Shown here: positions 52,473 to 64,000 of the stretch, piece by piece | How the letters are laid out: every line of letters starts with the position of its first letter | Numbering within the stretch: the first letter of the stretch is position 1 | Source: an uncultured bacterium | GTDB lineage: Bacteria; Patescibacteriota; Saccharimonadia; UBA4664 | NCBI GenBank assembly: GCA_963720265.1 | Contig: CAVRET010000001.1 | Coordinates: 389,916 to 453,915, forward strand | Direction of reading: 5' to 3' | DNA: 64,000 nt | Notes under the pieces: model-generated | The model's database searches: none | Seen by the model: only the letters and a program-made list of their open reading frames with translations | What the model was told of the DNA's origin: nothing | Position numbers and translations under genes: made by a program

Positions 52473-52627
52473 AATGCCTATGCTTTTAATTATGTGGTTA
52501 TCTTAGGAAAAATGACGGTGCGGTGTCAAATGGTTGGCTGCGCTTTTTATGGTTTTGCGATATAGTAGGCCGTGCGTCGTTTGTAGTACCGATTCAGATC
52601 TAGGCGATCCGAGAACAGGAGAGTGCG

Positions 52628-53284
52628 GTGGAAGATATCCCCCCGAGTGGGGTGGCCGAACGGCTCAAGGCGCTGCCTAAGATAACTGCGTATACGCCGG
52701 TGGATTCTAGCACAATGGGGCCGGGTACAGCGGAGCTTTTGATGATGCCGCCAAACCTCAAGCGGGCACTCCTCATGCGATCCGAGCGCCCGAGCTTGCC
52801 GCAGCGGCCGGGGCGTGAAGCCGTTACGTGGTGGGGCGTTCAGGCGCCACTGCTGGCTCACGCGTGCGGTATTGTGTGCGAAACGGCGATTGTTCTCGAG
52901 GGCAGAGGACTGGGCTGGTGCGGGCAGCCCGACTGTCAGCTCGACGAACGTGACCTCTATCCGGTGGCGGCAGTCGCGTTCTACCAGGGACCGCCCGTAG
53001 CGGAGCTCAGAAATCGGGGCATCGATGAAGCAGCGGGGTTCTCGGTGCTCGTGAGATACGGCAAGGCAGGGCCGCGCGGTACCCACTATGTGGTTACCCA
53101 CTGCTCTCCCTTCGCGGTTAGCTACGGCTACTGCAATACGGGAGAAATCCGTGCGCTGTTCGCGGATGCCGAAGGGGTTGATTCATTTCCGAGATGGGCA
53201 TGGACTCACCCCGAGGAGTCGGAGCGGGTGGCCATGGTTACGGCGACACTGCTATTGCGGGAACTGGCCCGCCACATTCAGTGA
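52628..53284 (+). CDS. hypothetical protein (GTG start with AGGAG RBS)
   Basis: 218-aa ORF; AGGAG sits 6 nt upstream of GTG 52628; the overlapping minus-strand ORF is Arg-rich antisense-type junk. Confidence 0.45.
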   Translation: MEDIPPSGVAERLKALPKITAYTPVDSSTMGPGTAELLMMPPNLKRALLMRSERPSLPQRPGREAVTWWGVQAPLLAHACGIVCETAIVLEGRGLGWCGQPDCQLDERDLYPVAAVAFYQGPPVAELRNRGIDEAAGFSVLVRYGKAGPRGTHYVVTHCSPFAVSYGYCNTGEIRALFADAEGVDSFPRWAWTHPEESERVAMVTATLLLRELARHIQ

Positions 53285-53355
53285 TCAAGCTTTACGGCGA
53301 AGGAGGTGCGCCGATGGTCATCCTCCAGGGCCGTCTAGATACTCTAGGCGGTCTT

Positions 53356-56466: not shown

Positions 56467-56766
56467 TTACCCTAGTAATGCTGCTACGCCGTGCTCGTGG
56501 ACGATATTCAACAACTTTAGGGCCGCCCCGTCTGGGTGTGTTTTCCCACTCTCCCACTTTTGAGCCGTTGTAACGCCGACGTTCAGCACCTTAGCCCAAA
56601 CACTCCGGCTAAGCTTTAGCTCTTCGCGTAGCTGCCTAATTTGCCCAGGGGTTAGCTCCCGAACGGTTGGTAAAGCCAGCGCTTCAAGCTTGTCCATGGT
56701 AATTTTATCTACCTTGGCATCGTTTGCCGCTTCAAGTACCACTTCCATGACAGTCTTGCCGTCCAT
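56467..56766 (-). CDS. higA: HigA-type antitoxin (XRE-family HTH DNA-binding protein)
   Basis: 99 aa; HTH LTPGQIRQLREELKLSRSVWAKVLNVGVTTAQKWESG; lies immediately downstream of the toxin gene (toxin-first order typical of higBA). Confidence 0.75.
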   Translation of the reverse strand: MDGKTVMEVVLEAANDAKVDKITMDKLEALALPTVRELTPGQIRQLREELKLSRSVWAKVLNVGVTTAQKWESGKTHPDGAALKLLNIVHEHGVAALLG

Positions 56767-56769
56767 TGT

Positions 56770-57150
56770 CTATTCCTTTCCTTTCGTTATCTCTACAATT
56801 GCCTTCGTTTCAAGACGAGGGGTTAAGTCAGCATCGCTTAAATTAAGATAGAATTTCCCAAGCTCCTTTAGTGCAGTTTTCTCTCTTTGGGTAATGTTGT
56901 CGCGATCACTTTTCTCAAATGCGTAGAGGAAGAAAGTTCTCCTGTGGGCTGAGTAAGCGAGTAACGTTCTTACGCTTCCGCTCTTACCTCTACCTTTCGT
57001 TGCTATGCGCTTCTTGAAAAGGTTCCCGCCTAAGTTTGCTTCGACGTTGCCCTTCTCGATGTCATTAACCGCTTCGCACAATAGCCCATCAGTTAATTCA
57101 TTGCTTTGGGCCCAGCTATAAAAACGTTTGATCGCGAATACTCTCATCAT
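56770..57150 (-). CDS. higB: HigB-type RelE/ParE-superfamily mRNA interferase toxin
   Basis: 126 aa; KRIATKGRGKSGSVRTLLAY...FFLYAFEKSDRDNITQREKTALKEL typical of the HigB/YgjN family. Confidence 0.75.
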   Translation of the reverse strand: MMRVFAIKRFYSWAQSNELTDGLLCEAVNDIEKGNVEANLGGNLFKKRIATKGRGKSGSVRTLLAYSAHRRTFFLYAFEKSDRDNITQREKTALKELGKFYLNLSDADLTPRLETKAIVEITKGKE

Positions 57151-57414
57151 TGCCCGCTCTATCCTTAGATACTATATCCTTTAAGGCTATATGTCAAGAG
57201 ATGCGCAGAATAACTGTATGCGTAGCAGACCTTTGCATCCTCACAAAAATACCGCCTCTGACGTGCGGTGTTTTTGTGGGAAGCACTATACTTATTTGGA
57301 TAACTCATTTGGTGCCCTTGAACGACATTCATTTGAACTCTTTTTGCAATGGTTGGATGCTTTTCGTCAAGGTTTTGAGGGGGAATCGCGATGACTGGCA
57401 ATTTGACTTATTTT

Positions 57415-57632
57415 TCAGAAAGTGTCCAAGGATTTTATGCCCAATGCGTCCTTTATGTTTTCCAACTTCTCAAACGAAGGGTTTTCCTCCCCTCTTTCGA
57501 TGCGGGCATAGTAGTTGCTATTAACCCCCGCCTTGGCCGCAACTTCCGACTGTGTCAGGCCGGCCTGTTCGCGGCTTTTTTAAGCTTTTCGCCAAGCTCT
57601 TTGCGCCTATTTTCTTGATCTTTGGTAGCCAT
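57415..57632 (-). pseudogene. XRE-family HTH regulator with a single-base frameshift (near 57560-57575)
   Basis: Manual minus-strand translation: MATKDQENRRKELGEKLKKAANRPA*; the next frame continues GLTQSEVAAKAGVNSNYYARIERGEENPSFEKLENIKDALGIKSLDTF*. 218 nt = 72 codons + 2. Could be a sequencing error. Confidence 0.45.
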
Positions 57633-57729
57633 ATATGGATAACTATACCATTTAGCCCAGGTTCTCATCATTCGTAGGCGGTATCGTCGTCAATCCGGTG
57701 GGGATGTTTGGACGATTATCGGATTATTT

Positions 57730-58228
57730 GTGCTGGGCGCTATTTATCATAAAGGATACATGCACCCGCTTGAAGAGTGGATACTTTTGGCGCTAGGTGC
57801 AGTCGCGACAGTGTCAGTTAGTGTTGTCTTTGCGTGGTTATTGCAAAAGATTCGAAATCAACGCGCACACTCTCAGTATGCCGACGGCTTGGCCTTTGAA
57901 AAATACATATGCTATTCTTCCCCGTCTCGGATTTACTGGCGTAAAGCTAACCGAGCGCTACGATTTGGGCGTCGACATTATTGCACAGAAGGACAGTGTT
58001 GTTTGGGGCATACAAGTTAAACATTATCAGGGGTTAGTTAGGGCTTCTGCTGTGCGGCAAGTGGTTACGGCGTTGCGGACGTACGGATGCGATCGCGTCA
58101 TGGTGGTAACTAGCGGTAGGTTTAGCCGTCCTGCGATTCAGCTTGCCTCAAGCAATAGATGTGTTTTAGTTAGCGGTCACGAGCTGGCCCGGTGGATTTC
58201 AACGTCGCGCACAAAAGCTAAACGATAG
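57730..58228 (+). pseudogene. Mrr-like type IV restriction endonuclease (N-terminal TM + Mrr_cat domain), frame broken near 57905-57925
   Basis: Frame 1: MLGAIYHKGYMHPLEEWILLALGAVATVSVSVVFAWLL...ADGLAFEKYI. Frame 3 continues ...AILPRLGFTGVKLTERYDLGVDIIAQKDSVVWGIQVKHYQGLVRASAVRQVV...VMVVTSGRFS (Mrr catalytic core D..(x)n..VK). 499 nt = 166 codons + 1; the break is in or near a C4 run. Confidence 0.5.
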
Positions 58229-58250
58229 CTATCGAAGGTTATTGTAGGTG

Positions 58251-59198
58251 TTATTTTACTGTTATCTTCTTAAAGCCTAGTTCCAGGGTATATCGGGCCA
58301 GCCTTCTAATGAGTCCTTTCAGCAGGTTCGGGATAAATGAATCGACCATCCATAATGAGACGATGGCAAACAAAACAACGAGGTAATTGTTTTTTATGAT
58401 ATCGATTAACACTCTAGGTTTGTAGTTCAGAATACTAAAGGTGAAATAGGTGAAAAGTACAGCACTGCAGTAGAAAATTATTGACCATCTACTGGCTTGG
58501 TATTCAAATATCCTAAGTTTTTGACCTTCAGATTTTTCGGGAGAATTCTGACCTTCATAAGATGCTCCTGATTGGTCGCTCATCACTATCTTCTCCTGAT
58601 CAAAGAATGGGTCGTAGTCGTACTTTGTTCCAGAGACAACAAAAAGGCATGCCGTAAGTACAGCTACGGTGGCTTTTGAAACAGTCCTCAGAAACCTGCG
58701 CCAAAACCACAGTTTTATCCTGAGGCAGAATCCTAAGAATGGTCTTGTGGTCTTTAGATGCAGATTATAAGCATACGTGAGTACATCAAGACCCGTGACA
58801 GCCTTGTCATTTTTGAATATTTCATTTTGTTCAGGATCGTAGACATAGTCATCTGTCACATTGATATCGATGGGATCATGGGCGGATGTTTCCTCGCCCG
58901 TTCTGATCTTGATTCCGCCGGCGTGCATGACCCCGAATGTTGCATCAACGAAGACCGGGTATAATCCATCCCTTTTATTATCAACCAATGTGACTCTAAT
59001 AAGGCTGGCTTCTTTACGGCCCTTGCGGCTATGCCTAACACTAAAACCAACCTGATCATCCAGATACGGGATAAAGTCTGAGAACTCACTCCCAGCAATA
59101 TCAAAGAGGTCCAGAAAATCAGATTTTATTTTCTTATCGACTAGTACCTTCATGATTCGATTATCCGTTTCACTATTTGTCGTGATCAATAAGTACAC
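58251..59198 (-). CDS. hypothetical two-domain protein: roughly 170-aa soluble N-domain plus C-terminal multi-TM region; lowest GC in window (about 40%)
   Basis: 315-aa ORF; hydrophobic helices near VAVLTACLFVVSG, WSIIFYCSAVLFTYFTFSIL and LVVLFAIVSLWMV; no family recognised. Confidence 0.55.
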   Translation of the reverse strand: MYLLITTNSETDNRIMKVLVDKKIKSDFLDLFDIAGSEFSDFIPYLDDQVGFSVRHSRKGRKEASLIRVTLVDNKRDGLYPVFVDATFGVMHAGGIKIRTGEETSAHDPIDINVTDDYVYDPEQNEIFKNDKAVTGLDVLTYAYNLHLKTTRPFLGFCLRIKLWFWRRFLRTVSKATVAVLTACLFVVSGTKYDYDPFFDQEKIVMSDQSGASYEGQNSPEKSEGQKLRIFEYQASRWSIIFYCSAVLFTYFTFSILNYKPRVLIDIIKNNYLVVLFAIVSLWMVDSFIPNLLKGLIRRLARYTLELGFKKITVK

Positions 59199-59451
59199 AT
59201 GGCTGGGCTGGCTTGCACTCTCTAAGGCGAAGGATTGTTTATTTTACTCTTTTGCGAGCAAGTTTTACCAGCTCTGCGTCGCGTTCGTAAGCACGCAGCC
59301 GACCGCTCAGGTAACCGAGACGATGATGAATTCCGTCGCTCATCAGTCGCCAGTTAGTGTCAGCTAGGGCCTCCTCGACCATCTTCTTGAGTACATTTCG
59401 GCTATCATGGCCGCTACTGCCGTCCGCCCGGAGTGACAGCTACAATGGGGA

Positions 59452-59929
59452 CATGTCAGAACGTGACGTATTTGATCCCGACAAGCGCAGAGCTGTGATG
59501 TCTTCAATCAAGAGCAAAGGGTCTGAGGCAGAGAGTATAGTATTTGCGTACTTACGTGGCGAACGCATCTATTACCAGAAGCACTACCCGAAAGCCCCAG
59601 GATCGCCCGATATCGCGTTACCTCGAAAGCGCATCGCAGTATTTATTGATGGTGACTTCTGGCATGGCCATGACTACGAAACCCGCGTAAAGCCGCGACT
59701 TTACAAAGAATGGTGGCGCAAGAAAATTTCAGAGAATATGGACAGGGATGTGCGCCAGTACGCCGAACTTGAGGCAAGGGGTTGGAAGGTGCTGCGGGTA
59801 TGGGAGAGCGACATTTTGCGGAAGCGCACCAGGCCGGCAGCACTTGAGCTGGTGAAGAAGTTTTTGCGTGGTCAAGCGTCGTCTTTAGCCGACTCCGATG
59901 CTTCAAAGGCTGATTCTGGAACCGATTGA
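59452..59929 (+). CDS. vsr: very-short-patch repair endonuclease
   Basis: Start MSERDVFDPDKRRAVMSSIKSKGSEAESIVFAYLRGERIYYQKHYPKAPGSPDIALPRKRIAVFIDGDFWHGH closely parallels E. coli Vsr (SK.TKPE..VR..L...G.RYR......PG.PDIV....K..IFVHGCFWH). Confidence 0.85.
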
Positions 59930-60510
59930 CCTCTCTCCAATAATTCAATTATTTTTGCTTCAGTATATAGGCCGGGTGGCAACTTATCCGCCCATGCGCG
60001 GCCGGGATGGAGTGTATCCCAAGATGATTTCTTCTGACCGCTTCGACCACCGCCGGGAGCGTGATTTCCGAAGCCGTCGATGCTGACATTCCATAAAGGC
60101 TTGAATCTGTTAATCATTAGGGACTCGGCCAGTGGAATCCAGATATCATCAACCACTAAATATCGGCAATAAAAATCTTCCTCACTGAGGTTTTTCGCAG
60201 ATGTAACAGACCCAAGATGTTGCTTAATCCGTGAGTAGAGAGAGCTTCCGGTAGTGTCGATCTCGAGCCCTTTTCGTGCACCTTTTGGCACAGCCTTCCC
60301 AACGTAAATTGGCGTGGCATCGTCGCCGGTCAGGTCTTTGGTCGAGATGTGCTTGTAAGCTGGAAAATCTCCGGCGTAGTAGATTGCGTATATCCCCGCA
60401 CCACTAAATGGGCGGAGCTGGGTCATTTTCTGCGGTGGCTCAGCGAGAAGCTGGCTAACGACGCTTTCGGCTAGGTTCGTTTTCTCAAGCGGATTATAGG
60501 GCTGGTTCAT
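59872..60510 (-). CDS. Eco29kI-family GIY-YIG type II restriction endonuclease
   Basis: 212 aa; GIY (Y41)...28 aa...YVG (Y69); R94-x3-H98; E129-x11-N141. The spacings match the published Eco29kI catalytic residues Y49/Y76/R104/H108/E142/N154. Confidence 0.7.
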   Translation of the reverse strand: MNQPYNPLEKTNLAESVVSQLLAEPPQKMTQLRPFSGAGIYAIYYAGDFPAYKHISTKDLTGDDATPIYVGKAVPKGARKGLEIDTTGSSLYSRIKQHLGSVTSAKNLSEEDFYCRYLVVDDIWIPLAESLMINRFKPLWNVSIDGFGNHAPGGGRSGQKKSSWDTLHPGRAWADKLPPGLYTEAKIIELLERGQSVPESAFEASESAKDDA

Positions 60511-61660
60511 TAACTAGCAGGTCCTTTACGGATGACGCGACGGCTCGCGCCAAGCCAACGGGTACCGCATTTCCGAGCTGTCTCATACTTTCGGTCCATG
60601 AGACAGGAAAGATGTACTCGTCAGGGAAGGATTGGATACGCGCACTTTCACGCACGGTGAAGTAGCGTACCGAGCCGTTCGGTAATGCTAGCATATTTTC
60701 CCCTCCCGGAACACCATGGCCGCCGGCCTTGATCGTCTTGGAGGGCTCATCATATTCGCTGCCGGTGTGTCCTGGGTAAATCTTCGCGCCAGGATTGAAC
60801 TTGTGATTAAGCACTTTGTTGTGCTTGTGTTGCGGGTGCGGCAGGTCTGAGATCGCGTCACGCACGGTTCGCCAAGCCTTGCCAGCTCCGGTAATCGTCT
60901 CGCGATCAGCGGCTTCGGCGATAACTTCACGAGTGTACGGCATTACTCCCCTATCTTTCAGAGGTACTTTGTGTCGATCCCAGTATTCACCTGTGAGCCA
61001 TTTGTCTCTCAAGAGTGCCGCGCGGGAGTGTGTTGGGCGCGGGAAACTCCATTCGAGATTCAAGTCATCTCGGAAACCAACAAATATCACACGTTCGCGC
61101 TTTTGGGGTACACCATAATTCGCGGCATTCAAAAGTTGCGTAACAACCTTGTACTCAAGTGTCTTGCCCGCCGTAAAGTATCGCTCGAGCCGCGAGAGGT
61201 GATCTTCCCAACTTTCATTATCTCGCCTGCCTAGACTTGGGTACGAAAGCTGTAGTTCAATATACTTGAAGTAACTTCGAAATGACGCCCTAGTCAGGCC
61301 TTTAACGTTTTCAAATATGAAGGCCTTAGGCCGCAGCTCCCGGACGGCTCGGACGGATTCCGGAAACATGTCGCGAGTGTCATTGTACGCTCCGTGTTTA
61401 CCGCCCAGCGAGAATGGCTGGCAGGGCGGGCCCCCGCTTAGCAGGTCCAACTCGCCGGAATAAACTGAGTAGTCGATGTCCCGGACATCCGCCTCTACGA
61501 TGTCCCAGCTGGTAATCGGGTGTACTTTCTCGGCCTGGTTGTGGCGAAGTGTGACACATGACTCACGATCCCACTCGATAAAGGTTTCCGTTTGAAAGCC
61601 CACAGAATCAATGCCCATAGAGAGCCCACCAGCACCACCAAAAAGCTCAATACATCTCAC
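60494..61660 (-). CDS. DNA (cytosine-5)-methyltransferase
   Basis: 388 aa; motif I LFGGAGG; motif IV GGPPCQPFS; motif VI ENV; C-terminal target-recognition domain; 17-bp overlap with the restriction-enzyme gene. Confidence 0.9.
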   Translation of the reverse strand: MRCIELFGGAGGLSMGIDSVGFQTETFIEWDRESCVTLRHNQAEKVHPITSWDIVEADVRDIDYSVYSGELDLLSGGPPCQPFSLGGKHGAYNDTRDMFPESVRAVRELRPKAFIFENVKGLTRASFRSYFKYIELQLSYPSLGRRDNESWEDHLSRLERYFTAGKTLEYKVVTQLLNAANYGVPQKRERVIFVGFRDDLNLEWSFPRPTHSRAALLRDKWLTGEYWDRHKVPLKDRGVMPYTREVIAEAADRETITGAGKAWRTVRDAISDLPHPQHKHNKVLNHKFNPGAKIYPGHTGSEYDEPSKTIKAGGHGVPGGENMLALPNGSVRYFTVRESARIQSFPDEYIFPVSWTESMRQLGNAVPVGLARAVASSVKDLLVNEPAL

Positions 61661-61866: not shown

Positions 61867-63876
61867 TTAGGTAACGGCAGCCTGTTCGGGCTGTAAATCA
61901 CTTTTCTCGAGATGATTTTCATTATTAATTGTTTTGAGTAAACTTTCTGATTTTGCGGTCAACTCATCCCGCAGGTATTGGTGATTCAACTCAAAACGCT
62001 CCAGCACTTGTGACCAGGTCAAGGCATAGCCTCGGAAGTTGTCCCCCGCTGTGAAGATCAAATCCGGGTCGCCAGTTACTTTAAGGTTGTCTTTTAGGCC
62101 CTGGATGTAACCATCGGTAGCGTAGTCGTTGCCAATGACGTAGAACTTCCAGTCGCTATCAGGACTATTAAACCTATCTTCTTTGAAGATAAGTTGTTGA
62201 TAGCTGAACAATTGGTCGAAGTCCTTTTTGCTCAAGTTTTTTGAGGCTCTTTTAAGCTCGGTGACCAAATGTTCAAATTTGTGACCATTCTTCCTCTTGC
62301 GGCAGGCGAAGATATCCATCTCTTTGTTCTTATCTTGATGTTCGATCCGTGGTTTTGATTTCGCAGGTGTCTCCCTAAACTCGAGAATTCGCCGGAGCGC
62401 CTCTTCGAAGTCTGGCTCTTCTGCTGTAATCAGTTGATACTGTTCGTCAACAATCCAAAGCTCACTCTCGACTATCCGTTGAATGTCTTTTTCTTTTGAG
62501 GTCTGCTCAAAATCAAAACAGATCCGTTTAAGGTTTTCGTACACTTCGTACCTGTCGCTAACTAATTGTGCCAGTTTTGTCATCCCATCTAACGAGACCT
62601 TGTCGAGCAACCTGACGAGCCTACTTCTATCTCCCTCTTCCATCTCGAGTAGGCTACCAATCACTGTCATTAAATCATCTCTGGCTTTTCCGCTCGCAAT
62701 CATTGAAGACAACAGCCGTCCGAAGATAACGCGCTGTTCGTTGCCAAGGTTTGCGAAAATCCTGGGCTCGATCTTAAAGAGCTCTTCAATGAGCTCTTTA
62801 GTGTATTCAGCCTGTAGGCGCTGAATAGGCGTAGCGCCTTCTTCCAGCCCCAAGATTGCCCCTTCCTTGGCGTATTCGTTCGATGTCTTTTTGGAAAGGT
62901 CTTCAAGAAAAGGCTTGCGTTTATCGCGCAAGAACTTCACAACAACTTCGACTAAGAATTCGTACGCTTGCGACTCCCGGCCGGCGCCAAACTCTAGTGC
63001 GGTTTGCTCCGGTTTATTTTCGCCGAAATCAAAATCATTGAATAGACCACTCCTGATGTAGACAGAGTGGTAGAATTTATCCCCCTTGTTATTCAGCTTG
63101 GTGGTTTCTTTAAACAGTTCAATACTGGACGAGTTCAGATAATAAAAACTGGAGTATTCGGGATGGGGCAAGTGACCCCATTGAACAAAAACTACCTCAA
63201 ATTCATTGCCTGTGGGCTCGTGCATGACCGTAAAGCTTGAGCTGTCGGTAGCAATAGACTTATCGGCCAATACGCAATCTGCATCTATTATTGCCGACCC
63301 AACAGTGATGCTTTTTGTGGGATCAAGGACTAGGAACCAACCAAATTCGCGCTTCACGTAAGTTTCCAAAGATTGCGCTAAAGCATCAGCGCTTGTCTCC
63401 ATGGAGATTTCAGTGAATTCGACAGTGGTTCCTGTATTCGCGGATGACACAGTCGGATCGGTGGGATCGTAATCTTCAAGGTTGCTCGCATTAACTGTTA
63501 TGTTGTATTGCAATTTGTTGGATTCAGACTCGTAAATCGTGTGCCAAACGGCTTGTCCTGCAAACTTGATAAATGCGAATCGTCCGTAGCCATTGTTGCC
63601 ATGGGGAAGCGAGTGATGTTTTTCCTTGGTTTTCTCTGATTCGTAAAAAGGTCGAAACTTATTGCGGAGTTGGTCTGACGGAATGCCGAAGCCATTGTCG
63701 GTGACCTTTATCGCTCCTATTGCACCGAGCTCATTCAGGGTTTCAATCTCAACCTTAATGTGGGTAGCGCCTGCATCGAACCCGTTCCAGCAGTACTCGG
63801 CCAAGGCGTCGTGATAGTGTAGGCCACTAAGAACCTTCTGGATTCCCTGGGTTTTAATCTGGATTTTAGCCATATG
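61867..63876 (-). CDS. GHKL-family ATPase (HATPase_c_3-type N-domain) with large uncharacterised C-terminal region
   Basis: ORF 61867..63957; start MAKIQIKTQG at 63876 preferred; N-box ALAEYCWNGFDAGAT; G1 box VTDNGFGIP; roughly 500 aa of unrecognised helical sequence follows. Confidence 0.65.
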   Translation of the reverse strand, partial: HMAKIQIKTQGIQKVLSGLHYHDALAEYCWNGFDAGATHIKVEIETLNELGAIGAIKVTDNGFGIPSDQLRNKFRPFYESEKTKEKHHSLPHGNNGYGRFAFIKFAGQAVWHTIYESESNKLQYNITVNASNLEDYDPTDPTVSSANTGTTVEFTEISMETSADALAQSLETYVKREFGWFLVLDPTKSITVGSAIIDADCVLADKSIATDSSSFTVMHEPTGNEFEVVFVQWGHLPHPEYSSFYYLNSSSIELFKETTKLNNKGDKFYHSVYIRSGLFNDFDFGENKPEQTALEFGAGRESQAYEFLVEVVVKFLRDKRKPFLEDLSKKTSNEYAKEGAILGLEEGATPIQRLQAEYTKELIEELFKIEPRIFANLGNEQRVIFGRLLSSMIASGKARDDLMTVIGSLLEMEEGDRSRLVRLLDKVSLDGMTKLAQLVSDRYEVYENLKRICFDFEQTSKEKDIQRIVESELWIVDEQYQLITAEEPDFEEALRRILEFRETPAKSKPRIEHQDKNKEMDIFACRKRKNGHKFEHLVTELKRASKNLSKKDFDQLFSYQQLIFKEDRFNSPDSDWKFYVIGNDYATDGYIQGLKDNLKVTGDPDLIFTAGDNFRGYALTWSQVLERFELNHQYLRDELTAKSESLLKTINNENHLEKSDLQPEQAAVT

Positions 63877-64000
63877 GTAGCTCGCTTTAGATTGATTGTA
63901 TGGTATCTGTTCGCATTTGCAAGATGTCAGGGGCTTGTCTCTCCCCTCTCTTCCCATGGTAAGGGCAGCACGTGATGCGTCAAGGTCGTTCCAACCAGGT

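Follow-up and report, generated by a model that had tools for sequence, protein, structure and literature searches.

At positions 58251..59198 of the window (by which we mean the whole stretch of DNA that was analyzed: 64,000 nucleotides of contig CAVRET010000001.1, from an uncultured bacterium), there is a minus-strand open reading frame (ORF) with 315 codons from its GTG start. As a preliminary description of this DNA had stated, the gene lies between an Mrr-like nuclease gene and vsr, among defense genes: an Mrr_cat domain, Vsr, an Eco29kI restriction-modification (RM) system, and a RelE module were all found nearby. Here we describe the protein family that it belongs to and weigh whether it is a defense gene. 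The GC content of the ORF is 41.2%, as compared to 55.2% for the whole 64-kb window, and the 948-bp stretch with the lowest GC content in all 64 kb begins at 58230. Since this minimum coincides with the ORF, the minimum is the gene itself, which agrees with the earlier report of it as the window's lowest-GC gene.

The gene is real. With a composition like this, a random codon is a stop about 6% of the time, which means that an ORF of such length is not due to chance (by our own estimate, the probability of an open frame of 300 or more codons is about 1e-8 to 1e-9). Independently, its coding status is proven by 265 relatives, most of those listed matching it from end to end. The protein was originally described as having 315 amino acids. 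An ORF of 315 codons does exist, but both the database gene call (P0001, on a contig of 567,794 bp) and the family alignment begin at an internal ATG at 59153, so this is most likely the true start and the product has 300 amino acids. The most likely coding sequence is thus 58251..59153 on the minus strand, with a TAA stop at 58251-58253. Its GC content is 41.5%, and the GC content at third codon positions (GC3) is 0.445, versus 0.58 for neighboring genes. The 15-codon upstream extension from the GTG (59154..59198, minus strand) is aligned by no family member and, judging from the sequence, is probably not translated. It holds a weak promoter-like sequence, TTGATC-18-GATAAT (59189-59160), which ends 6 nt before the ATG. 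Because such sites are no more frequent here than in shuffled sequences (4 found vs. 3.9), this site is not evidence on its own. As a monocistronic gene in the window, it runs convergently with the Mrr gene and divergently from vsr.

The preliminary description did not recognize a family for the protein. This holds for the curated libraries: the window protein has no match in Pfam, NCBIfam, PHROGs, or PADLOC; when 76 members of its family were compared to Pfam, no Pfam family was matched by more than two of them (the best E value was 0.014); and among the sequences in PDB, phmmer found nothing and the best profile match had E = 1.3. But a sizeable unnamed family exists. An exhaustive phmmer search of 1.84 billion representative sequences found 265 relatives with E ≤ 1e-3, including 153 with E ≤ 1e-10 and 37 with E ≤ 1e-30. 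Most of the 150 relatives that were listed have about 300 amino acids and align end to end, at 25-38% identity. In a word-indexed search of 5.8 billion clusters, the single sequence matched only itself, and a profile of 76 sequences added one member. Given what the exhaustive search found, the impression of an orphan was an artefact of the word index. Verdicts of this kind are unsafe, if they come from a word index alone, for families that evolve quickly and are poor in low-complexity sequence.

To describe the family's conservation, we used an alignment of 76 sequences (A1), and we rechecked the key positions with 153 sequences. In the larger set, His132 is present in 152 of the 153 sequences, Gly141 in 151, and Arg145 in 146 (97%). 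In A1, the near-invariant residues are F17, G36, G74, P94, R145, G175, Y228, N255, F257, Y262, and P275.

The hosts that could be identified all belong to the Patescibacteria, also called the Candidate Phyla Radiation (CPR). We scanned 185,579 species genomes from GTDB (one per species) for the motif NNFLT[VLI]xYV[IV], which is carried by about 21% of the family. (The scan's alignment, A3, comprises 30 members that share NNFLT..YV.) The motif was found at six loci, all from metagenome-assembled genomes of Patescibacteria: the hosts are classified as Parcubacteria, Moranbacteria, Sungbacteria, or "Patescibacteria group". A further family member is annotated in Parcubacteria bacterium C7867-005. 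With tblastn, we found no match in 50,697 phage records (INPHARED) or in 72,556 plasmids (PLSDB). Four queries against IMG/VR gave no confirmed match, but these scans rest on short peptide patterns and are not exhaustive. We considered a phage-encoded role (as a holin, a lysis protein, or a structural protein) and rejected it, as there is no match in INPHARED or PHROGs and none confirmed in those short-pattern scans of IMG/VR. We also rejected the idea of a core housekeeping membrane protein of Patescibacteria: the GTDB scan found six loci only (with a motif that covers about 21% of the family), the neighborhoods are unrelated, and the gene is a local GC minimum almost everywhere (17 of 18 loci; see below). 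Nor was there homology to any housekeeping membrane family, which would have undercut the original proposal of a defense role.

We then examined the predicted structure. From the single sequence, AlphaFold gave a predicted local distance difference test score (pLDDT) of just 42. With alignment A1 as the input to AlphaFold 2 (AF2), the pLDDT rose to 93.4, with a predicted template-modeling score (pTM) of 0.83. In this model, a beta-rich domain (amino acids 1-120) is followed by a helix (121-132) that ends at the invariant histidine, a conserved basic linker, and a long helix (142-174). The C-terminal part has two beta-hairpins around a variable loop (191-211) and then helices at 222-241, 247-254, and 256-293. 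Foldseek found no match for the AF2 model (its best hits were at E = 1 for PDB and at E = 0.03 for BFVD). The fold is predicted with confidence and appears to be novel, as it is unmatched in either collection.

The N-terminal beta-rich domain (58794..59153, minus strand) is modeled with pLDDT of 91-98. It has no signal peptide and is predicted to be cytoplasmic. Its strands in the AF2 model are at 25-29, 36-42, 48-57, 64-77, 80-83, 97-106, and 111-119, and its conserved residues are F17, G36-F37-S38, S50, G74, P94-x-D96, and Y105-D106. We considered a hydrolase site formed by G-F-S-x-x-K, D96, and H132, but rejected it: both S38 and K41 are part of a beta-strand, and neither is invariant, with H41 taking the place of K41 in the window protein. 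From the alignment and the AF2 model, the next segment (58683..58793, minus strand) comprises three parts: the helix at 121-132, the motif that is best conserved in the family, and the beginning of the long helix. Across the family, the consensus for this motif is H-x-K-P-T-K-x3-G-x2-L-R-x-K-L-x-F-W-R. Amino acids 142-157 are strongly basic and amphipathic (the net charge is +3.4 family-wide), and this basic segment probably lies at the membrane interface.

The preliminary description proposed that the soluble domain is followed by a C-terminal bundle of three transmembrane helices. A soluble N-terminal domain with hydrophobic helices C-terminal to it is borne out by the AF2 model, and three segments of the window protein (158-175, 223-243, and 256-278) do reach a Kyte-Doolittle hydropathy of at least 1.6, but only two of them look membrane-spanning. 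Segment 1 (amino acids 158-175, ATVAVLTACLFVVSG; 58629..58682, minus strand) is the C-terminal half of the helix at 142-174. Its Kyte-Doolittle value is 1.65 in the window protein. On a simple Hessa-type scale, its 19-mer sum has a family median of 5.3 kcal/mol, and just 3% of members are at or below 1.5, so by sequence it is a weak transmembrane candidate, and a poor one family-wide. On the same scale, the medians are 1.5 kcal/mol for helix 2 at 223-243, which is good, and 2.6 kcal/mol for helix 3 at 256-278, which is marginal. Between segment 1 and helix 2 are the two beta-hairpins (amino acids 177-190 and 212-221; 58488..58628, minus strand), which flank a low-complexity acidic or polar loop at 191-211. 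This loop varies in both length and sequence, and it is the sole low-confidence part of the model (pLDDT of 62-68 for amino acids 191-210).

Helix 2 (58425..58487, minus strand) is the best transmembrane candidate, with conserved residues Y228 and H232 (V232 in the window protein). Helix 3 (58320..58388, minus strand) follows an N255-N256-F/Y257 motif, contains Y262 and P275, and pairs with helix 2 in the model. Position 271 is acidic (E or D) in 130 of the 153 sequences (D in the window protein) and is predicted to lie within the membrane. The protein ends with a basic amphipathic tail (amino acids 279-300; 58254..58319, minus strand) that has a net charge of +4.5 across the family and ends with K-x-I-x-[VIL]. 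Helices 2 and 3 are joined by a loop of 12 residues whose net charge is only +0.9 family-wide. By the positive-inside rule, this pattern (+3.4 just before segment 1, +4.5 in the tail, and +0.9 in the loop) suggests that helices 2 and 3 form a two-helix hairpin, with both termini inside and the rest of the protein in the cytoplasm, and this is the most likely topology, with three transmembrane helices as the less likely alternative. Direct packing of helices 2 and 3 is also supported by covariation: across the 153 sequences, Y262 occurs with H, N, or Q at position 232, and all six sequences with F262 have a hydrophobic residue there (I, V, M, or A). With V232, Y257, and F262, the window protein is one of the rare variants, without the conserved polar H232/Y262 pair.

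Next, we compared the genomic context of the gene across its relatives. We drew on genomes, metagenomes, and look-ups of exact protein sequences to assemble a set of about 25 non-redundant loci, clustered the flanking ORFs (by BLASTP and by phmmer), and annotated the nearest genes with Pfam. Neither way of clustering identified a neighbor that is conserved across the loci. Defense or mobile-element genes are present within five genes on either side at 12-13 of the ~25 loci, and many of these contigs are short, so defense neighbors are undercounted. In comparisons in the style of Makarova 2011 or Doron 2018, a majority of a defense gene's homologs should lie near defense genes, well above background. 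The background of defense genes in CPR is probably low; a small number of defense systems are known from such genomes so far (PMC12366544, discussion). The preliminary description had said that an absence of homologs from defense contexts would count against its proposal, and instead about half of the loci have such neighbors.

These neighbors are diverse. The window has Mrr, Vsr, Eco29kI RM, and RelE toxin-antitoxin genes. Other loci have two N6_N4 methyltransferases and HNH (L010); LexA-S24, patatin, a SMODS CD-NTase, and a Pol-beta nucleotidyltransferase, with patatin and SMODS as CBASS genes (L011/L022); a STAND NTPase of 1606 amino acids (L013); an EcoRI methyltransferase and GmrSD-HNH (L017); or HsdR, KilA-N, and HsdMS of a type I RM system along with Schlafen/AlbA_2 (L025, where the homolog overlaps the stop of hsdMS). 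There is a helix-turn-helix (HTH)-SocA/Panacea antitoxin at L012, a LexA-S24-C5 methylase at L015/L026, a LexA-S24-type IIG-like methylase at L043, and at L038/L039 a BglII restriction endonuclease, a LexA-S24-methylase, and AbiTii. L041 has a MORC-like GHKL ATPase, a primase (zinc-ribbon), AAA_25, and a serine recombinase, and L001 has a serine recombinase and a Phage_CRI Rep. (Around the element at L001, we saw no repeats that resemble att sites.) A GIY-YIG/DUF4357 match at L044 is weak.

The low GC content of the gene is a feature of the whole family. In 17 of 18 loci, the homolog is the lowest-GC gene of at least 150 amino acids within 10 kb on either side. (The 18 loci are the window, L001, L004, L010, L012-L014, L017-L019, L022, L025, L028-L031, L034, and L035.) GC3 is lowered too: 0.33 vs. 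0.59 at L028, 0.42 vs. 0.69 at L030, and 0.45 vs. 0.58 in the window. At L001 and L041, the gene lies within small integrative elements. The family-wide low GC content, a distribution that is patchy, and insertion sites that are unrelated to one another imply that this is a horizontally mobile accessory gene.

Several other features of these loci are worth recording. In three of them, a LexA DNA-binding domain and an S24 peptidase are fused to the N terminus of a DNA methyltransferase (L026 6550-8124, L038 3816-5408, and L043 5194-7647). These fusions span C5, N6_N4, and type IIG-like N6 methylases and are from independent CPR lineages; they could provide SOS-like, self-cleaving control of RM. 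A stand-alone LexA-S24 protein is encoded beside the CBASS operon (L022 5298-5945). Another protein, of 352 or 380 amino acids and with weak zinc-ribbon matches, is encoded one or two genes upstream of the homolog at L013 (8929-9987) and L011/L022 (8261-9403); the two forms match each other with E = 7e-79, and a fragment is found in a third lineage (L029 9771-9989). An ORF of 165-180 amino acids is common to L013 and L015/L026. The zinc-ribbon protein and the shorter ORF may be lineage-limited co-travelers or an optional partner. Finally, a His_Phos_1 gene is separated from the homolog by 2 nt at L038 (7451-7999) and is two genes downstream at L013 (11899-12435), and it was seen in these two lineages only.

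In the window, the nearest neighbor is the Mrr_cat domain at 57797-58228 on the plus strand (Pfam Mrr_cat, 1.1e-20, with a match restricted to positions 16-115 of the profile), which is convergent with our gene across a 22-bp gap. The full restriction-endonuclease-type gene (57730..58228, plus strand) has a +1 frameshift that splits it near 57905-57910, and we view it as context rather than as a partner. Three-frame translation places the frameshift in GAAAAATACATATGC (...GLAFEKYI / AILPRLGFTG...). Frame 1 encodes hydrophobic N-terminal helices and then ...YADGLAFEKYI, and frame 2 encodes AILPRLGFTGVKL... plus the remaining domain, so the membrane anchor at the N terminus and about the first 15 positions of the domain profile are in another frame. 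Either the gene is a pseudogene or the assembly has an error. If the frame were repaired, its sequence would encode a membrane-anchored Mrr-type nuclease.

On the other side is vsr (59357-59929, plus strand; Pfam Vsr, 9.4e-22; PADLOC Vsr), which is divergent from our gene. It is followed by an Eco29kI-type restriction endonuclease (59872-60510, minus strand; Pfam RE_Eco29kI, 6.1e-61; PADLOC REase_II) and a C5 cytosine methyltransferase (60494-61660, minus strand; Pfam DNA_methylase, 9.8e-60; PADLOC MTase_II). Vsr is functionally tied to C5 methyltransferases, as in the Vsr/Dcm system. By their domain content, these three genes (59357..61660) make up a complete type II RM module with a mismatch-repair nickase. 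The island ends with a GHKL ATPase of 696 amino acids (HATPase_c_3; 61867-63957, minus strand), which has a match to phrog_6203 along almost the whole protein (1e-61). We considered whether this ATPase is kin to the MORC-like one directly upstream of the homolog at L041 (6413-7915) and rejected this, as the similarity is confined to the GHKL N terminus (26% identity, E = 1e-5). Beyond the Mrr gene is a RelE-type toxin (56770-57150, minus strand), which is paired with an HTH antitoxin (56467-56766, minus strand).

No integrase is present in the window, and no convincing repeats flank the island. There are two pairs of imperfect direct repeats, 54525-54572/57326-57373 (48 nt, 83%) and 56436-56468/57402-57434 (33 nt, 76%), perhaps left over from a segment that was duplicated or rearranged. 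In each pair, one copy falls in a T-rich stretch between the RelE and Mrr genes (57151-57729) that contains no convincing gene. Farther away, in a region of about 880 bp with 60-64% GC (52473-53355), the only ORFs overlap one another and occupy both strands, and a threshold as loose as E ≤ 1 still gave no Rfam match; the region might correspond to a structured RNA that has diverged or to a gene that has decayed. In the 64-kb window as a whole, no tRNA and no Rfam family at threshold were found, despite the presence of ribosomal-protein operons and rpoB/rpoC. At the start of the window, rplO begins about 8 nt after rpsE, with no rpmD (encoding L30) in between, and L030 has the same arrangement. 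The absence of L30 is reportedly a hallmark of CPR, so the window fits a CPR genome.

What might this protein do? We tentatively favor the reading that it is anchored in the membrane, is spread horizontally, works on its own, and acts against phages or other invading DNA in Patescibacteria, as a single-gene determinant of defense or exclusion. Its autonomy is supported by the lack of a conserved neighbor and by the monocistronic arrangement in the window. The topology, the sensing, the action at the membrane, and the defense function itself we infer. The N-terminal beta-rich domain and the basic segment with the invariant H-x-K-P-T-K...G..LR.KL.FWR motif would lie on the cytoplasmic face and could be a sensor or a lipid-interacting module. 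The helices at 223-243 and 256-278 would form a membrane hairpin, held together by the H232-Y262 contact (V and F in the window copy). This hairpin, with its buried acidic residue (E/D271), might be the membrane-active part, and the basic C-terminal tail would return to the cytoplasm. A phage-derived cue at the cytoplasmic domain could cause the protein to oligomerize or rearrange, and once activated it might either compromise the membrane (abortive infection) or block the entry of DNA.

Several points weigh against this reading. Neither in sequence nor in fold is the family linked to a known defense effector (by PADLOC, Pfam, or Foldseek against PDB and BFVD), and the search for remote homology to Abi and pore-forming effectors that was suggested in the preliminary description came up empty with the same tools. 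Across the 76 members, PADLOC gave a single weak match, to the candidate model PDC-M50A (1.7e-4). The putative transmembrane helices are only moderately hydrophobic, and the very high pTM suggests that they pack tightly on the beta domain, so they could instead lie outside the membrane or at its periphery. The window copy is without the H232/Y262 pair and has a tyrosine at the near-invariant F257, so it may work differently or be decaying. As for the genomic context, a rate of nearly 50% near defense genes looks enriched because few CPR defense systems are known, and this is relative to an assumed background rather than to matched random genes. The association with RM may also reflect a gene that lands in variable hot spots. 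About 11 of the 25 loci have housekeeping genes or genes without assignments as the only neighbors: BipA at L004; LeuRS through dCMP deaminase at L014/L035; ThyA and DHFR at L019; a DedA-like protein and ArgRS at L028; GatB and a penicillin-binding protein at L029; alpha-2-macroglobulin at L040; ATP-synthase epsilon and a UvrD-type helicase at L042; and neighbors without an assignment at L031, L034, and L045. At L030 (8555-10900), the homolog (GC of 0.39, in a contig of 0.57) is straight after secY in a conserved ribosomal-protein operon and is followed by several small ORFs of lower GC content.

These housekeeping loci, and the lack of a tie to any defense family, are what one might expect if the gene were generic island cargo: a lineage-specific mobile membrane protein with a role in the envelope or host attachment, signaling, or small-molecule handling, which gathers in RM-rich variable regions. 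Alpha-2-macroglobulin, PAP2/VTT membrane proteins, glutaredoxin, and His_Phos_1 do recur sporadically nearby. But no metabolic or envelope operon is kept around the gene, its distribution is very patchy, it is consistently AT-rich relative to its host, and in several independent lineages it abuts or overlaps RM or Abi genes. We consider this explanation doubtful, though it deserves to be taken seriously. It seems improbable that the protein instead serves small CPR integrative elements or satellites, for maintenance or for entry exclusion, by blocking superinfection or DNA uptake without killing the cell. The lowered GC content is typical of mobile DNA, the homolog adjoins a serine recombinase and a Phage_CRI-type Rep at L001 and a primase zinc-ribbon, an AAA_25 protein, and a serine recombinase at L041, and the CPR gene ldgA, which protects at both high and low multiplicity of infection (PMC12366544), is a non-abortive precedent. 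However, most loci have no recombinase or Rep within 8-10 kb, and neither INPHARED and PLSDB (by tblastn) nor PHROGs contain the family (nor, in the short-pattern scans, was a match confirmed in IMG/VR).

Two other explanations involve a partner for the protein. It might be the toxin of an unrecognized addiction module, similar to toxin-antitoxin systems, and be neutralized by a small adjacent product or an RNA. Short ORFs do overlap or abut the gene at L004 (116 amino acids), L043 (98), L041 (69), L029 (67), and L012 (91), and the low GC content and the weak promoter could limit its expression. Yet the small ORFs show no homology among themselves, there is no co-oriented small neighbor in the window, and there is no Rfam RNA nearby. 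Type II toxin-antitoxin systems are recognized by a conserved small partner that is adjacent to the toxin and co-transcribed with it, and across our loci there is no homologous small neighbor. We think that this is quite unlikely. The preliminary description had also suggested that the protein is a membrane partner of the adjacent nucleases, which would be either Mrr or Vsr. The Mrr_cat gene is only 22 bp away and itself encodes a hydrophobic N-terminal anchor, and Mrr_cat genes are also within 10 kb at L017 and L030. But Mrr_cat is present in just 3 loci, at +1, +9, and +18 genes, and the ~22 other loci have neither Mrr nor Vsr. In the window, the Mrr gene is frameshifted and convergent with our gene, so they are not co-transcribed, and Vsr is accounted for by the neighboring C5 methyltransferase. 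Without a conserved pairing, we think that this suggestion is almost certainly wrong.

We also compared the family to known defense proteins. SLATT-domain proteins and the CBASS effector Cap15 are reportedly two-helix transmembrane effectors that are found in defense islands. A protein of this kind would be expected to have an N-terminal hairpin with two transmembrane helices, the profile or fold of the family, and an obligatory linkage to a synthase for nucleotide signals. Like them, our family would join a short helical hairpin in the membrane to a soluble domain that binds a ligand or a signal, and in one lineage only (L011/L022) the homolog is near a SMODS CD-NTase, three genes away. Unlike them, the order is reversed, with the soluble domain at the N terminus and the hairpin at the C terminus. 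There is no Pfam SLATT match among the 76 members and no Foldseek match to PDB chains. Also, in contrast to CBASS effectors, the gene stands alone at about 24 of the 25 loci, and the sole CBASS operon already has a patatin effector. RexB, AbiTii-type proteins, and the Sie proteins of prophages are similar in that they are accessory, AT-rich relative to the host, often on mobile elements or next to RM genes, and act alone. They share no sequence similarity with our family (by PADLOC, Pfam, and PHROGs), which was not found in the phage and plasmid collections. (The AbiTii gene that neighbors the homolog at L038 is not homologous to the family.)

The closest parallels by description are LdgA and DdgA, which were found by metagenomic selection and are reported to be almost exclusively Patescibacterial (Cell Host Microbe 2025, PMC12366544). 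According to section 10 of that article, these Patescibacteria-restricted single genes, without recognizable homology, protect E. coli from phages. Our family, compared by description only, shares the restriction to Patescibacteria, the orphan status, and the lack of a partner. There are also differences. Going by its primers, the termini of DdgA (the Dallas gene), MQPVTV... and ...ASSE*, with K276 as the targeted residue, do not resemble those of our family, which ends with ...K-x-I-K-[IVL]*. In PMC12366544, transmembrane domains are named only for SjdB, and the source of LdgA is given as Nanosynbacter (Saccharimonadia), as against the Parcubacteria-type lineages of the hosts identified for our family.

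A bolder claim would be that this protein founds a new class of immunity, one that relies on a single protein and is unique to Patescibacteria. In such a class, a previously unseen fold would link a cytoplasmic beta-rich sensor, by way of the invariant basic His/Gly/Arg motif, to a two-helix membrane hairpin with a buried acidic residue, in a free-standing AT-rich cassette that is spread by horizontal transfer, and it may or may not be the same as the ldgA/ddgA family. We regard this claim as unlikely, if far from fanciful. For now, we classify the protein as a new family and fold that would implement a known general strategy, with defense as its candidate role.

Patescibacteria account for much of bacterial diversity, yet their known defense systems and phages are very few. 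A CPR-restricted, partner-less family of about 300 residues, encoded beside RM, CBASS, STAND, and Abi genes, makes a specific candidate that is inexpensive to pursue, being a single gene of 900 bp. Should it prove protective, it would be a new architecture for a membrane-acting effector and would help explain immunity in ultra-small genomes. If it is not protective, it would still be a well-defined new family and fold that marks the mobile gene pool of CPR.

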